A stretch of DNA of 64,000 bases from Escherichia coli (GTDB lineage Bacteria; Pseudomonadota; Gammaproteobacteria; Enterobacterales; Enterobacteriaceae): assembly GCF_003334335.1 (NCBI RefSeq), contig NZ_QOWQ01000017.1; one strand, given 5' to 3'. Within the stretch, counting starts at the first letter, position 1, and every line of letters starts with the position of its first letter. Of this stretch, positions 5,446-11,590 are shown one piece after another. The translations under genes and the position numbers were made by a program. The notes under the pieces were generated by a model. The model was given only the letters and a program-made list of their open reading frames with translations, ran no database searches and was not told the DNA's origin.

Positions 5446-8122
5446 CGAACCCTTACGTCCCGACCCCGATCGTCTGCTGGAACAAACTGCCGCGCCGCAT
5501 CGGGGGAAGCTGAAAGTTTTCTTCGGTGCCTGTGCAGGCGTCGGGAAGACCTGGGCGATGCTGGCAGAAGCCCAGCGACTGCGGGCGCAAGGGCTGGATA
5601 TTGTGGTTGGCGTGGTAGAAACCCACGGGCGAAAAGATACCGCCGCCATGCTGGAAGGGCTGGCTGTTCTGCCGTTAAAACGCCAGGCGTACCGTGGGCG
5701 GCATATCAGCGAGTTTGATCTCGATGCCGCCCTCGCCCGCCGCCCGGCGCTGATCTTAATGGACGAACTGGCGCACAGTAATGCGCCAAGTTCCCGTCAT
5801 CCCAAACGCTGGCAGGATATCGAAGAACTGCTGGAAGCTGGCATTGATGTTTTCACTACCGTCAACGTTCAGCATCTGGAAAGTCTGAATGATGTGGTCA
5901 GCGGCGTCACCGGAATTCAGGTACGGGAAACCGTGCCCGATCCTTTTTTCGATGCCGCCGACGACGTGGTGCTGGTGGACTTGCCCCCGGACGATCTGCG
6001 CCAGCGGCTGAAAGAAGGCAAAGTCTATATTGCCGGGCAGGCGGAGCGCGCCATTGAACATTTTTTCCGCAAAGGTAATCTGATCGCCCTGCGCGAACTG
6101 GCACTGCGCCGTACTGCCGATCGCGTTGATGAGCAAATGCGCGCCTGGCGGGGGCATCCTGGCGAAGAGAAAGTGTGGCACACGCGCGACGCGATCCTTT
6201 TATGCATCGGCCATAACACCGGCAGCGAAAAACTGGTCCGCGCAGCGGCGCGGCTGGCGTCACGGCTGGGTAGCGTCTGGCACGCGGTGTATGTTGAAAC
6301 CCCTGCCCTGCACCGCTTACCGGAAAAAAAACGTCGGGCAATTCTCAGCGCCTTACGTCTGGCGCAGGAACTGGGCGCGGAGACGGCAACACTTTCTGAT
6401 CCAGCGGAAGAGAAAGCGGTAGTGCGTTATGCCCGTGAACATAATCTCGGCAAGATTATTCTCGGTCGCCCGGCCTCGCGCCGCTGGTGGCGTCGGGAAA
6501 CGTTTGCTGACCGACTGGCGCGCATCGCCCCCGATCTCGATCAGGTGCTGGTCGCGCTTGATGAACCACCCGCCCGCACGATTAACAACGCGCCGGATAA
6601 CCGCTCTTTTAAAGACAAGTGGCGTGTACAAATTCAGGGATGCGTGGTTGCCGCCGCGTTATGCGCCGTTATCACCTTAATTGCCATGCAGTGGCTGATG
6701 GCGTTTGATGCCGCCAACCTGGTGATGCTGTATCTGCTTGGCGTGGTGGTGGTGGCGCTATTTTATGGACGCTGGCCTTCAGTGGTTGCCACCGTCATTA
6801 ATGTAGTGAGTTTCGATCTCTTTTTTATCGCCCCACGCGGCACGCTCGCCGTCTCTGATGTGCAATATCTGCTGACCTTCGCGGTGATGTTAACCGTCGG
6901 GCTGGTGATCGGGAACCTTACTGCTGGCGTGCGTTATCAGGCGCGGGTAGCCCGTTACCGCGAGCAACGCACACGGCACTTATATGAAATGTCGAAAGCT
7001 CTGGCGGTGGGCCGCAGTCCGCAGGATATCGCTGCCACCAGCGAACAATTTATTGCCTCCACGTTTCATGCCCGCAGTCAGGTGTTGTTGCCCGATGACA
7101 ACGGTAAATTGCAGCCGTTAACACATCCGCAAGGAATGACGCCGTGGGACGATGCCATCGCGCAGTGGAGTTTTGATAAAGGCCTGCCTGCGGGCGCGGG
7201 CACCGACACGTTACCCGGTGTACCGTACCAGATTTTGCCGCTAAAAAGCGGCGAGAAAACCTACGGGCTGGTGGTGGTGGAGCCGGGGAATCTGCGCCAG
7301 TTGATGATCCCGGAACAGCAGCGCCTGCTGGAGACGTTTACGCTGTTAGTCGCCAATGCCCTTGAGCGGCTGACGCTAACCGCCAGCGAAGAACAGGCGC
7401 GGATGGCAAGCGAACGTGAACAGATCCGCAACGCCCTGCTGGCGGCGCTTTCGCATGATTTACGCACGCCGCTTACGGTGCTGTTTGGTCAGGCAGAAAT
7501 CTTAACGCTCGATCTGGCAAGCGAAGGATCACCCCACGCCCGCCAGGCCAGCGAGATCCGTCAGCATGTGCTGAACACTACCCGACTGGTGAATAATCTA
7601 CTGGATATGGCGCGAATTCAGTCCGGCGGCTTTAATTTGAAGAAAGAGTGGTTAACGCTGGAAGAAGTAGTCGGCAGCGCGCTGCAAATGCTGGAACCGG
7701 GTTTATCGTCGCCCATCAATCTTTCTCTGCCAGAACCGCTGACCTTAATCCACGTTGACGGGCCACTCTTTGAACGGGTGCTGATTAATCTGCTGGAGAA
7801 CGCGGTGAAATATGCGGGTGCGCAGGCCGAAATTGGTATCGATGCCCACGTTGAGGGCGAAAATCTACAACTGGATGTCTGGGATAACGGCCCCGGTCTT
7901 CCGCCAGGCCAGGAGCAGACGATATTTGATAAGTTTGCTCGCGGGAATAAAGAGTCGGCAGTACCGGGGGTAGGGCTTGGACTGGCAATTTGTCGGGCGA
8001 TAGTGGATGTACACGGGGGCACTATTACCGCGTTCAACCGACCGGAAGGTGGTGCCTGTTTTCGTGTTACACTTCCCCAGCAAACTGCCCCTGAACTTGA
8101 AGAATTTCATGAGGATATGTGA
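5438..8122 (+). CDS. kdpD: Sensor histidine kinase KdpD
   Basis: Start [14 protein letters not shown]... at ATG 5438; 894 aa; overlaps the kdpC 3' end by 8 nt. Confidence 0.93.
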
Positions 8123-8796
8123 CAAACGTTCTGATTGTTGAAGATGAACAGGCTATTCGTCGCTTTCTGCGCACGGCGCTGGAGGGCGACGGGATGCGCG
8201 TCTTTGAGGCCGAAACGCTGCAACGCGGCTTGCTGGAAGCGGCAACCCGTAAGCCAGATTTGATTATTCTCGATCTCGGCCTGCCCGATGGTGATGGGAT
8301 TGAGTTTATCCGCGACCTGCGCCAGTGGAGCGCGGTGCCGGTGATTGTGCTTTCCGCACGCAGCGAAGAGAGCGACAAAATCGCCGCGCTGGATGCCGGA
8401 GCGGATGATTATCTGAGTAAGCCGTTTGGCATTGGCGAATTGCAGGCCCGTCTGCGCGTCGCATTACGCCGCCACTCTGCCACCACCGCGCCCGATCCGC
8501 TGGTAAAATTTTCCGATGTTACCGTCGATTTAGCCGCCCGCGTGATTCACCGGGGTGAGGAAGAGGTGCATCTCACACCAATTGAGTTCCGCCTGCTGGC
8601 GGTGCTGCTCAACAATGCCGGAAAAGTACTCACCCAGCGCCAGCTCCTTAACCAGGTGTGGGGGCCAAACGCGGTCGAACACAGTCACTATTTGCGTATT
8701 TATATGGGACATCTGCGACAAAAACTGGAACAGGATCCCGCCCGCCCACGCCATTTCATTACTGAAACCGGTATTGGCTATCGGTTTATGCTTTGA
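8119..8796 (+). CDS. kdpE: Response regulator KdpE (OmpR family)
   Basis: GTG start overlapping the kdpD stop (GTGA); [17 protein letters not shown]..., 225 aa. Confidence 0.93.
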   Translation: MTNVLIVEDEQAIRRFLRTALEGDGMRVFEAETLQRGLLEAATRKPDLIILDLGLPDGDGIEFIRDLRQWSAVPVIVLSARSEESDKIAALDAGADDYLSKPFGIGELQARLRVALRRHSATTAPDPLVKFSDVTVDLAARVIHRGEEEVHLTPIEFRLLAVLLNNAGKVLTQRQLLNQVWGPNAVEHSHYLRIYMGHLRQKLEQDPARPRHFITETGIGYRFML

Positions 8797-8832
8797 ATAT
8801 TAATTTTAATACAGCCTGCCTTTTATTAATTA

Positions 8833-8859
8833 AAGCCGTAATAATAAATACGGCTTTTT
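8833..8859 (+). terminator. Intrinsic terminator after kdpE
   Basis: agccgta-ataataaa-tacggct followed by a T run. Confidence 0.5.
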
Positions 8860-9029
8860 ATCTTAAACAACACACAAAAATAACAATTCAATATTTTATA
8901 TTACTGAGTAAAAAGCTCATCATTAAATAAATTAAGATTGATCATTTTTTATTGATCACCTTCACAGTTCAACCGTATTTCCTGGATAGAATATCTTCAC
9001 CTTCATTCACATCAGGAAAGGTAAATTAA

Positions 9030-9134
9030 ATGGAAAATAACAGCCGCACTATGCCCCATATAAGGCGGACAACTCATATTATGAAGTTTGCTCATCGCAA
9101 TAGCTTCGACTTTCACTTCTTCAATGCCCGTTAG
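9030..9134 (+). CDS. speFL: Leader arrest peptide SpeFL (34 aa) upstream of speF
   Basis: ATG at 9030 preceded by aggaaagg; translates MENNSRTMPHIRRTTHIMKFAHRNSFDFHFFNAR then TAG; not in ORF track because it is short. Confidence 0.8.
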   Translation: MENNSRTMPHIRRTTHIMKFAHRNSFDFHFFNAR

Positions 9135-9391
9135 TCTACCGACTAAGGGCACTTCAGCGTACAGGTCTTCCTGACTCTCTGTATTACAGGCATATGCCTG
9201 TATTCCGCAGTGCTCATTCTCTGTTAACCCTTGTATTATCAGCCACCTGACTGGTAAGGGTTTCTGCATTCTGAAAAAAGCAATCTACCTGATTTATTTA
9301 TCAGCGGGGTAACTTTGCTTTTTTCCGGCACGATCGATTTCTCATTCGAGAAATTGAGGACCTGCTATTACCTAAAATAAAGAGATGAAAA

Positions 9392-11590
9392 ATGTCAAAA
9401 TTAAAAATTGCGGTTAGTGATTCTTGCCCGGACTGTTTTACCACGCAGCGAGAATGTATCTACATTAATGAAAGTCGTAATATCGATGTGGCGGCAATAG
9501 TTTTATCGCTCAACGATGTTACATGCGGAAAACTCGATGAAATCGATGCCACGGGTTATGGCATCCCGGTATTTATTGCTACTGAAAATCAAGAACGTGT
9601 ACCCGCAGAGTATTTGCCCCGTATTTCGGGTGTCTTTGAGAATTGCGAATCGCGACGAGAATTTTATGGTCGCCAGTTAGAAACCGCTGCCAGCCATTAT
9701 GAAACTCAACTGCGCCCACCTTTCTTCCGCGCACTGGTCGATTATGTCAATCAAGGTAACAGCGCGTTTGATTGCCCTGGTCATCAGGGCGGCGAATTTT
9801 TCCGTCGCCATCCGGCGGGGAATCAGTTTGTGGAATACTTTGGTGAGGCGCTGTTCCGTGCCGACTTGTGCAACGCCGACGTAGCGATGGGCGATCTGCT
9901 GATTCACGAAGGCGCGCCATGCATTGCACAGCAACATGCGGCAAAAGTGTTTAATGCCGATAAAACCTACTTCGTTTTAAATGGCACTTCATCTTCTAAC
10001 AAAGTGGTTTTAAACGCCCTGCTAACACCGGGTGATCTGGTGCTGTTTGATCGCAATAACCACAAATCTAACCACCACGGAGCGTTGCTACAGGCTGGTG
10101 CAACACCGGTTTATCTGGAAACGGCACGTAACCCGTATGGCTTTATCGGTGGCATTGATGCGCACTGTTTTGAAGAAAGTTACCTGCGTGAGCTGATCGC
10201 GGAAGTCGCACCGCAGCGGGCAAAAGAGGCTCGTCCTTTCCGCCTCGCTGTGATTCAGTTAGGCACCTACGACGGTACGATTTATAACGCCCGCCAAGTG
10301 GTGGATAAAATTGGTCATCTGTGTGACTACATCCTGTTTGACTCAGCATGGGTCGGCTATGAACAGTTTATTCCGATGATGGCGGACTGTTCGCCGCTGT
10401 TGCTGGATCTTAATGAGAACGATCCGGGTATTCTGGTTACGCAATCTGTGCATAAACAACAGGCTGGTTTTTCTCAGACTTCACAAATTCATAAAAAAGA
10501 CAGCCACATCAAAGGGCAACAGCGTTATGTACCGCACAAACGCATGAACAACGCCTTTATGATGCACGCCTCCACCAGCCCGTTCTATCCGCTGTTTGCC
10601 GCACTGGATATCAACGCCAAAATGCATGAAGGTGTCAGCGGTCGTAATATGTGGATGGATTGTGTGGTAAATGGCATTAATGCCCGCAAACTGATCCTCG
10701 ATAACTGTCAGCATATTCGTCCGTTCGTACCTGAACTGGTGGATGGTAAACCCTGGCAGTCGTATGAAACAGCGCAAATTGCGGTTGATCTGCGCTTCTT
10801 CCAGTTTGTACCAGGGGAACACTGGCATTCTTTTGAAGGCTATGCAGAGAATCAATACTTTGTCGATCCATGCAAACTGTTGCTGACAACCCCAGGTATT
10901 GATGCACGTAACGGCGAATATGAAGCGTTCGGTGTACCCGCGACGATTCTTGCTAACTTCCTGCGCGAAAATGGCGTAGTGCCGGAAAAATGCGATCTTA
11001 ACTCCATCCTCTTCCTGCTGACTCCGGCAGAAGATATGGCCAAACTTCAGCAACTTGTTGCCCTGCTGGTACGCTTCGAAAAACTGCTTGAGTCCGACGC
11101 GCCATTAGCAGAAGTGCTACCTTCCATCTACAAACAGCATGAAGAGCGCTACGCCGGTTATACCCTGCGTCAGTTGTGTCAGGAAATGCATGATTTGTAT
11201 GCCCGCCACAACGTGAAACAACTGCAAAAAGAGATGTTCCGTAAGGAGCACTTCCCACGCGTCAGCATGAATCCGCAAGAAGCCAACTACGCCTATTTAC
11301 GCGGTGAAGTGGAACTGGTTCGTCTGCCGGATGCAGAAGGCCGTATCGCTGCCGAAGGTGCGCTTCCTTATCCTCCGGGTGTGCTGTGTGTTGTTCCGGG
11401 TGAAATCTGGGGTGGTGCTGTTCTGCGTTACTTCAGCGCTCTGGAAGAAGGGATCAACCTGCTGCCAGGTTTTGCACCGGAGCTGCAGGGTGTCTATATC
11501 GAAGAACATGATGGTCGTAAGCAAGTTTGGTGCTATGTCATCAAGCCTCGTGATGCGCAAAGCACCCTGTTGAAAGGGGAAAAATTATGA
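9392..11590 (+). CDS. speF: Inducible ornithine decarboxylase
   Basis: 732-aa ORF MSKLKIAVSDSCPDCF...; fold-III PLP decarboxylase. Confidence 0.95.
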   Translation: MSKLKIAVSDSCPDCFTTQRECIYINESRNIDVAAIVLSLNDVTCGKLDEIDATGYGIPVFIATENQERVPAEYLPRISGVFENCESRREFYGRQLETAASHYETQLRPPFFRALVDYVNQGNSAFDCPGHQGGEFFRRHPAGNQFVEYFGEALFRADLCNADVAMGDLLIHEGAPCIAQQHAAKVFNADKTYFVLNGTSSSNKVVLNALLTPGDLVLFDRNNHKSNHHGALLQAGATPVYLETARNPYGFIGGIDAHCFEESYLRELIAEVAPQRAKEARPFRLAVIQLGTYDGTIYNARQVVDKIGHLCDYILFDSAWVGYEQFIPMMADCSPLLLDLNENDPGILVTQSVHKQQAGFSQTSQIHKKDSHIKGQQRYVPHKRMNNAFMMHASTSPFYPLFAALDINAKMHEGVSGRNMWMDCVVNGINARKLILDNCQHIRPFVPELVDGKPWQSYETAQIAVDLRFFQFVPGEHWHSFEGYAENQYFVDPCKLLLTTPGIDARNGEYEAFGVPATILANFLRENGVVPEKCDLNSILFLLTPAEDMAKLQQLVALLVRFEKLLESDAPLAEVLPSIYKQHEERYAGYTLRQLCQEMHDLYARHNVKQLQKEMFRKEHFPRVSMNPQEANYAYLRGEVELVRLPDAEGRIAAEGALPYPPGVLCVVPGEIWGGAVLRYFSALEEGINLLPGFAPELQGVYIEEHDGRKQVWCYVIKPRDAQSTLLKGEKL

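Follow-up and report, generated by a model that had tools for sequence, protein, structure and literature searches.

The window analysed here, a stretch of 64,000 nucleotides from Escherichia coli (contig NZ_QOWQ01000017.1), contains in this order kdpE, a 34-codon ORF that we identify as speFL, a spacer of 257 nt, speF and potE. KdpE (8119-8796; NF007820, 488 bits) is encoded upstream of speFL, and so is KdpD. The regulated gene speF encodes the inducible ornithine decarboxylase (9392..11590, + strand; TIGR04301, 1435 bits against a cut-off of 1310), and potE, the second gene of the operon, encodes the putrescine-ornithine antiporter (11587..12906, + strand; NF007938, 857 bits; TIGR04299, 851 bits). 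The spacer between speFL and speF (9135..9391, + strand) is highly structured and contains a terminator-like stem with a U-run at 9303-9319; a length of 257 nt has been given for the E. coli spacer in the literature as well (bioRxiv 10.1101/604074). A direct repeat of 145 nt (8653-8797 and 12988-13132, 90% identity) brackets speFL-speF-potE. It consists of the duplicated 3' end of kdpE, and its second copy corresponds to the K-12 pseudogene ybfI; the duplication looks like the footprint of an insertion of the module beside kdpE.

The leader ORF lies at 9030..9134 on the + strand. According to its translation and the ORF list, it comprises 34 codons and a UAG stop (ATG GAA AAT AAC ... GCC CGT TAG), and its product is MENNSRTMPHIRRTTHIMKFAHRNSFDFHFFNAR. 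An earlier, sequence-only reading had described a 34-codon leader with a good ribosome-binding site about 260 bp upstream of speF, and both statements are confirmed: the distance to speF is 257 nt, and a purine-rich Shine-Dalgarno-like element, AGGAAAGG, can be read directly from the sequence at 9014..9021 (+ strand), 8 nt before the ATG. In the Salmonella leader orf34, AGGA is marked as the Shine-Dalgarno sequence (PMC6386406). It is also true that this leader is absent from the ORF track, but this is only an effect of the length threshold, as it appears (9030..9134, +, 34 aa, ATG start) when the minimum is set to 25 aa. speFL is a small functional gene of the kind that is lost from ORF tracks with a length threshold.

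Chance could by itself produce a 34-codon ORF, as 93 ORFs of at least 25 aa in the list overlap the 7 kb around speFL, and the case for speFL therefore rests on identity and conservation. The peptide is identical in 34 of 34 residues to the "SpeFL" chain of PDB 6TBV/6TC3 (E=7.6e-20), and its residues 8-33 match the Pfam family PF10940, "Leader peptide SpeFL" (formerly DUF2618; E=4.6e-5). In the RefSeq annotation of K-12 MG1655, the ORF is present as speFL (b4803) between kdpE and speF, and the label "speFL: leader peptide SpeFL" is found in many E. coli genomes in RefSeq. These matches identify the stretch as the kdp-speF-potE region of E. coli and the ORF as a known gene, and they bear out the earlier assignment of the peptide as the ornithine-sensing arrest peptide that controls speF-potE. 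Furthermore, speFL is among the EcoCyc leader peptides listed in PMC7815308, and of the 1709 complete E. coli genomes with the K-12-type leader, all but one (1708) show at least 95% identity over the 651 nt of the leader region. The NCBIfam scan of the 34-aa peptide gave no matching model. Similarly, no family covers the leader in an Rfam scan of 8000-13500 at a permissive E-value, which returned only a sub-threshold MicX after potE and a chance match inside speF.

No result contradicts the identification, and we regard it as practically certain that the ORF at 9030-9134 is the speFL leader of the E. coli speFL-speF-potE operon and acts by ornithine-dependent arrest. The gene is real, correctly identified and already known, and what it encodes is SpeFL itself, the type member of its family, rather than a mere relative. 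Indeed, speFL/orf34 was described in 2019-2020 by genetics, toeprinting and cryo-EM structures at 2.7 Å, and it is present in RefSeq, EcoCyc and Pfam. All the functionally required residues are found in the peptide encoded here (P9, H10, I11, R12, R13, H16, F26, F28, F30 and F31). The sensor motif reads P9-H10-I11-R12-R13-T14-T15-H16, in which HIRRTTH (codons 10-16; 9057..9077, + strand) represents the HIRRxxH ornithine-recognition loop of the sensor domain (10.1101/604074), and the aromatic effector core F20, F26, F28, F30 and F31 is present as well. R12 (AGG) and R13 (CGG) are encoded by consecutive rare arginine codons (9063..9068, + strand).

The conservation of the leader was analysed in 80 loci, one genome per species, that had been fetched by the SpeF protein query alone, so that the sample is blind to the leader; four of these loci were incomplete and were left out of the leader/potE counts. 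A SpeFL-like ORF is present 200-500 nt upstream of speF in 60 of the 61 loci with potE downstream. The only potE locus without it belongs to Pseudomonas, and its PotE-like gene is only 53% identical. Of the 15 loci without potE, which represent speC-type paralogues (among them second copies in Yersinia, Serratia and Edaphovirga), 13 lack the leader. Leader-bearing loci were found in more than 25 genera of Enterobacterales and in Shewanella and Sutterella. Thus, the possibility that the peptide is not conserved in other speF-bearing genomes, which the sequence-only reading had named as a reason to abandon the assignment, did not materialise. The loci from Sutterella and related Burkholderiaceae contain a leader-like ORF upstream of speF-potE (…RRIRHIMCFxCRSCFS…) that matches the Pfam SpeFL family (E=5.6e-5) without having H10 and I11. 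In two further loci (L034 and L075), an 81%-identical decarboxylase gene adjoins kdpE, with neither the leader nor potE.

The substitution pattern is that of a coding sequence. In the 48 loci with an ungapped 34-codon match, heterozygosity summed by sense codon position amounts to 5.7, 4.1 and 13.8, and in the sense frame, with the present sequence as reference, 540 codon changes are synonymous and 293 non-synonymous, with no stops. The excess at third positions and the synonymous surplus indicate that the peptide is under purifying selection. Among 30 distinct Enterobacterales peptides, M1, E2, N3, N4, H10, I11, R12, R13, H16, M18, R23, F26 and F28 are invariant and M8, T15, H22, F31 and N32 nearly so, in agreement with the published functional map (10.1101/604074). 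Of the aromatic residues, F26 and F28 are conserved in 100% of these peptides, F31 in 93%, F30 in 70% and F20 in 60%. The earlier expectation that the peptide, and especially its C-terminal FHFFNAR, is kept across Enterobacterales therefore holds for the peptide, but this C-terminal stretch is not its best conserved part: H29 (77%), F30 (70%), A33 (67%) and R34 (73%) all vary, and the counterpart of FHFFNAR is FAFFNFR in Serratia and FSYYHYR in Yersinia. At the codon level, position 12 is always a rare arginine codon in the 49 loci compared (AGG in 37, CGA in 7, AGA in 3, CGG in 2; CGT or CGC in none), and at codon 13, CGG and CGA together account for 39 of the 49. The leader ends with TAG in 29 cases and with TAA in 18.

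Two readings would deny that speFL is the gene at this position. That the ORF is a chance ORF without function could be argued from the abundance of short ORFs in the 7 kb mentioned above. It is contradicted by the identity to a solved arrest peptide, by the potE-linked conservation across more than 25 genera and by the third-position substitution bias; this reading is already refuted, and we assign it a vanishingly small probability. The other reading takes as the real gene the 85-aa ORF on the opposite strand (9012..9269, -), and the 34-codon sense ORF as incidental. This antisense ORF does appear in the ORF list across speFL, as had been noted; it is longer than speFL and begins with ATG, and K-12-like strains (e.g., L001) have it uninterrupted and 100% identical. 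Older annotations of K-12 presumably had a hypothetical gene, ybfK, in this interval. However, the antisense ORF is in exact codon register with speFL, and where the two overlap its frame shows in the same 48 loci 31 synonymous against 802 non-synonymous codon changes and 19 in-frame stops, which occur in other genera, and it is therefore without coding constraint. The sequence-only reading had stated that a stronger coding conservation of the antisense ORF would speak against the leader; what was found is the opposite (31/802 against 540/293 for speFL). In tblastn searches, the antisense ORF was recovered with 43-71% identity over only part of its length, SpeFL with 85-97%. Its product matches no NCBIfam family, and the current RefSeq annotation of K-12 MG1655 has no CDS on the strand opposite speFL. 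We conclude that the antisense ORF is not a gene and is open by chance in this lineage; the reading is effectively refuted, and there is hardly any probability left to it, if slightly more than to the chance ORF. The case illustrates that an overlapping longer antisense ORF can mislead.

Upstream of speFL, a putative -10 hexamer, TAGAAT, is located at 8987..8992 (+ strand), and GGATAGAATA is invariant across three aligned haplotypes. As the AUG of Salmonella orf34 is at +32 (PMC6386406), transcription would be expected to start near 8999. A scan of 8700-9500 for consensus sigma-70 promoters found no site because there is no good -35, and the promoter has therefore been placed by analogy and conservation only. 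Note also the direct repeat TGATC-N9-TGATC (8939..8957, + strand), which precedes the speFL ATG by about 91 nt. More than 20 Enterobacteriaceae loci have it at this spacing from the leader ATG, and it occupies a conserved island, whereas the intergenic region around it has 63% identity between haplotypes. We regard it as a candidate site for a regulator of the speFL-speF-potE promoter and only infer its membership in the system.

At the other end of the leader ORF, a hairpin of 11 bp with the loop UACC covers codons 32-34 and the stop codon (9125..9151, + strand). It has a predicted dG of -15.2 kcal/mol (z = -3.8), and none of 200 shuffled sequences folded as well. Among 20 Enterobacteriaceae sequences, 17-19 retain its pairs. 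The closing pair covaries (U-A in 7, C-G in 7, G-U in 3), its variable base on the speFL side being the synonymous third position of the Asn32 codon; in Enterobacter sp. ENT03, two changes in the inner stem compensate each other. As the alignment suffers from indels in the 3' arm, RNAalifold gave only a weak consensus energy (-4.3 kcal/mol), and the hairpin was judged by pair counts and the single-sequence fold instead. In the more distant genera Hafnia, Edwardsiella, Buttiauxella and Yersinia, inspection of the alignment by eye shows another hairpin, 15-20 nt past the leader stop. The hairpin at the speFL stop has been called a pause hairpin (10.1101/604074), and we predict the same role, i.e. 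pausing of RNA polymerase, for the one described here. The pause consensus G-11 G-10 ... Y-1 G+1 (GGN8YG; consensus cited in 10.1101/604074) is matched at 9148..9159 (+ strand) by GGCACTTCAGCG, which predicts a 3' end at 9158, 24 nt past the speFL stop. In Salmonella, 3' RACE revealed a Rho-terminated transcript of ~157 nt that ends ~21 nt after the orf34 stop (PMC6386406), so that the loading of Rho must take place further upstream.

Within the leader, the composition most like that of a rut site is found in the 3' half of speFL, where a C-rich, G-poor tract (9069..9129, + strand) contains 27.9% C and 11.5% G; the C>G profile reaches its maximum in the 40-nt segment 9090-9129, i.e. inside speFL, with 35% C, 12% G and 8 YC dimers. 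According to the published model, rut overlaps the speFL ORF and is hidden under the leading, stalled ribosome and those that queue up after it (10.1101/604074). From composition together with this literature, we infer that rut corresponds to the tract at ~9069-9129 within speFL. The proximal half of the spacer is mildly C-rich (27.8% C and 20.6% G) and may provide further Rho loading; the distal half has no C>G skew (18.3% and 17.6%). The sequence-only reading had placed the rut region masked by stalled ribosomes in the spacer (9135-9391). This placement is not supported, since published work puts rut across the ORF and Rho termination ~21-24 nt after the stop, and a ribosome stalled at the stop codon cannot cover 257 nt. 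Of these features, the spacer takes up the hairpin's 3' arm and the predicted termination point alone, both within its first ~25 nt. For a leader known this well, the useful corrections concern the rut and the termination point, inside and just after speFL, and the question of which SpeFL residues are conserved.

The published work accounts for most of the steps from ornithine to speF expression. Ornithine-dependent arrest was shown by toeprinting and cryo-EM for the identical SpeFL sequence (10.1101/604074, 6TBV/6TC3). While SpeFL is being made, its N-terminal sensor loop (HIRRxxH, with Pro9, Arg12 and Arg13) and the 23S rRNA build a pocket in the exit tunnel that takes up one L-ornithine, whereupon the C-terminal effector domain (F20, F26, F28, F30 and F31) compacts; F26 is strictly conserved, and F28, F30 and F31 stack on the 23S rRNA (10.1101/604074). 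In this state U2585 is displaced, RF1 cannot release SpeFL at the UAG, and the stalled ribosome holds codon 34 in the P site (10.1101/604074). Frameshifted speFL abolishes stalling (10.1101/604074), and the peptide, rather than the RNA, is therefore the sensor. In E. coli and Salmonella, genetics showed that without stalling or without leader translation Rho terminates shortly after the leader (10.1101/604074, PMC6386406), and bicyclomycin, which lifts this termination, leads to constitutive speF expression (10.1101/604074). With ornithine, stalled and queued ribosomes cover rut, and transcription enters speF-potE (10.1101/604074).

Projected onto the present sequence, this mechanism would have RNA polymerase pause at 9125-9151, where the hairpin lies, and at the pause motif with its predicted 3' end at 9158, and Rho load at the C-rich, G-poor tract at ~9069-9129. 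The footprint of a ribosome is generally ~30 nt. With codon 34 in the P site, a stalled ribosome would thus cover roughly 9117-9146; it would open up the hairpin together with part of the helix involving the speF ribosome-binding site (see below), which would help speF translation. When ornithine is low, the rare arginine codons 12 and 13 would slow the following ribosomes and leave rut exposed. A role of these codons in rut exposure has been described, and recoding of AGG-CGG to common synonymous arginine codons changes only the basal expression (10.1101/604074).

The leader RNA as a whole (8999-9420) folds to -114.5 kcal/mol (z = -4.3). In the predicted minimum free energy structure, 13 pairs with probabilities of 0.69-0.92 join an anti-RBS segment at codons 27-31 of speFL (9108..9121, + strand) to the ribosome-binding site and start codon of speF (9380..9396, + strand). 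A second long-range helix connects codons 4-7 of speFL (9040-9048) with codons 6-9 of speF (9409-9418). The Salmonella equivalent of the helix between codons 27-31 and the speF ribosome-binding site was validated by compensatory mutations, and leader translation is needed there both for avoiding Rho termination and for freeing the speF ribosome-binding site (PMC6386406). We compared the duplex between speFL codons 23-34 and the region -22..+8 of speF with shuffled controls in 35 loci. The mean z is -0.7, and z is below -2 in 6 of the 35 loci; values of -2.6 to -3.4 were obtained for Citrobacter and Kosakonia, the value of -1.5 obtained here is not significant alone, and distant genera gave no signal in this test. 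With a mean z of -0.7, the duplex test was rejected as independent support for sequestration outside the Escherichia/Citrobacter group. Sequestration of the speF ribosome-binding site, to which the test lends modest support, is likely in the Escherichia/Salmonella/Citrobacter group.

These structures bear on a different account of the leader, in which it is mainly a sensor of translation speed or arginine supply and ornithine arrest is secondary. Here, the pace of the ribosome at the arginine codons would set the fold of the 5' UTR, making it RNase G-sensitive or RNase G-resistant and the speF ribosome-binding site sequestered or free. Such control was shown in Salmonella, with the arginine codons coupling the leader to arginine supply through RNase G (PMC6386406). 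The validated Salmonella helix fits this account, and so do the features of the present leader, namely the same AGG-CGG pair, a rare arginine codon that is universal at position 12, and a strongly structured RNA whose minimum free energy fold contains the helix with the speF Shine-Dalgarno sequence and AUG. However, the anti-RBS duplex is here not better than 9% of the shuffled controls, and the complementarity is gone outside the Escherichia/Citrobacter/Kosakonia group, where the peptide stays conserved. Moreover, a frameshift in speFL abolishes stalling, and ornithine binding accounts for R12 and R13 being strictly conserved (10.1101/604074). We give somewhat less than even credence to speed sensing as the main function; it would form a layer complementary to ornithine-dependent arrest by SpeFL and is not its strict rival.

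The arrest-peptide locus occurs in E. coli in two forms. speF is present in 5045 of 5426 complete E. coli genomes; 1709 complete genomes (about one third) have the K-12-type leader described above, and 3347 (about two thirds) have an alternative leader, which is similar to that of E. albertii and has a spacer of 310 nt. Identities by segment were taken from two example loci (L084 and L085). They amount to 63% for the kdpE-speFL intergenic region, 85.7% for speFL, 82-84% with 57 gap columns for the speFL-speF spacer, and 84-87% for nt 1-500 of speF, and to 95-100% for the flanks (kdpD/kdpE, speF from nt 1001, and potE); the block of divergence is sharply bounded. Within speFL, 15 of 105 nt differ, with 11 synonymous and 2 non-synonymous codon changes, and 2 of the 34 residues are affected (S5N and T7L). 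One could imagine that E. coli keeps two ancient speF control haplotypes with different set-points for induction by ornithine, pH or arginine, rather than a neutral relic of recombination, but we consider this improbable. In NZ_AP022177, an IS1 element is inserted inside speFL between codons 10 and 11, and PGAP calls a 32-aa "hypothetical protein" at the interrupted gene; other strains have IS1 between kdpE and speFL.

Among the known systems, a trpL/hisL-type attenuator does not describe this locus, as neither an alternative terminator/antiterminator nor a run of regulatory codons was found. The only stem with a U-run in the leader is the one at 9303-9319, 170 nt downstream of speFL; with no intrinsic terminator directly after the leader ORF, speFL is not a classical terminator/antiterminator attenuator. 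In comparison with trpL and hisL, the two arginine codons are not a long run, and SpeFL and the ribosome respond to the free amino acid as ligand (10.1101/604074). A closer parallel is TnaC of tnaCAB, in which ligand-dependent arrest (with tryptophan) likewise takes place at the stop codon with the release factor blocked, and masks a rut site beside the leader, preventing Rho termination (10.1101/604074). However, TnaC is a presumably unrelated peptide with another ligand and another binding site in the tunnel and does not belong to the same family. MdtU, encoded by the uORF of mdtJI (Adams et al. 2021, PMC7815308), is polyamine-responsive and linked to premature Rho termination, and was proposed by these authors to work like speFL (PMC7815308); it differs in its peptide and its ligand, spermidine, and its mechanism is less well established.

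The leader orf34 of Salmonella Typhimurium (Ben-Zvi et al. 2019, PMC6386406) is an orthologous 34-codon leader upstream of speF-potE. It also has Rho termination just past the ORF, consecutive arginine codons, and a helix between the 3' end of the leader ORF and the speF ribosome-binding site (PMC6386406), and this long-range helix is reproduced in the minimum free energy fold of the present sequence. The Salmonella leader is longer, with the speF AUG at +516, compared with ~+394 here if transcription starts near 8999, and orf34 ends with UGA, speFL with UAG; evidence for control by RNase G and arginine comes from Salmonella only. SpeFL of E. coli K-12 (b4803; 6TBV/6TC3; PF10940; Herrero del Valle et al., bioRxiv 10.1101/604074) represents the same locus. 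The two share the 34-aa sequence, the UAG stop, the AGG-CGG codons 12-13, the 257-nt spacer and the kdpE and speF-potE neighbours, and there is no difference between them in the peptide or in the architecture of the leader.

The 3' end of kdpE is duplicated in the window as a 145-nt direct repeat (8653-8797 and 12988-13132, 90% identity), the two copies of which, 4335 nt apart from start to start, flank the entire speFL-speF-potE module. The downstream copy is the counterpart of the K-12 ybfI pseudogene. This bracketing repeat suggests that the module was inserted beside kdpE. Just 3' of potE, a sub-threshold match to the Rfam MicX sRNA (12909-13094, plus strand; E=7e-5, with 34 bits where the gathering score is 75) overlaps a stem-loop (~12925-12946) as well as the duplicated kdpE fragment and is probably not meaningful. 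Pseudocitrobacter faecalis (L034) and 'Escherichia sp. ESNIH1' (L075) possess immediately 3' of kdpE a gene for an ornithine decarboxylase that is 81% identical to SpeF, and neither a speFL leader nor potE is present beside it in these two loci. This arrangement is unlike that of every other close SpeF relative sampled.

The speF control region of E. coli exists as two deeply diverged haplotypes (window 8797-9891; example loci L084 and L085 from E. coli and L003 from E. albertii). speF was found in 5045 of the 5426 complete E. coli genomes; 1709/5426 carry the K-12 type seen in this window (257-nt spacer between speFL and speF), and 3347/5426 the E. albertii-like type (310-nt spacer). The block of divergence has sharp edges, with flanks that are 95-100% identical, and inside it the haplotypes share 63% identity in the intergenic region, 85.7% in speFL, 82-84% in the spacer and 84-87% in nucleotides 1-500 of speF. 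The SpeFL peptides differ solely by S5N and T7L. The spacer contains a terminator-like stem followed by a U-run (AGCGGGGTAACTTTGCT TTTTTCC; 9303-9319, plus strand), and the block holding it is conserved across both haplotypes.

Upstream of the leader, a direct repeat TGATC-N9-TGATC (8939-8957) is located ~91 nt from the speFL ATG, and a putative -10 element TAGAAT is found at 8987-8992. The repeat keeps a constant distance from the speFL ATG in more than 20 Enterobacteriaceae loci, whereas the intergenic DNA around it is poorly conserved. It is a candidate binding site for a regulator of the operon promoter.

In some E. coli strains, the leader region is interrupted by IS1. In NZ_AP022177.1 (L002, 1784-2612), the element lies within speFL and separates codons 10 and 11, the remnant being called by PGAP as a 32-aa hypothetical protein. 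In NZ_CP025842.1 (L001, 2275-2972), it is inserted between kdpE and speFL, and speF is also frameshifted. Under the published model (bioRxiv 10.1101/604074), disruption of speFL is expected to silence speF-potE.

The SpeFL survey in the same study described gamma-proteobacteria. We found a leader-like ORF (e.g., MHVNPYMQNAVTRRIRHIMCFACRSCFSWQRFSASTIL) ~165-400 nt upstream of speF in five betaproteobacterial loci as well (L056, L061, L068, L069 and L082, from Sutterella and Burkholderiaceae metagenome-assembled genomes). It matches the Pfam SpeFL family (E=5.6e-5), and potE is located downstream of speF in four of these five loci (none was found there in L069). However, His10-Ile11 of E. coli SpeFL, which is reportedly needed for ornithine-dependent arrest in E. 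coli (bioRxiv 10.1101/604074), is replaced by V/I-T/R in the betaproteobacterial leader.
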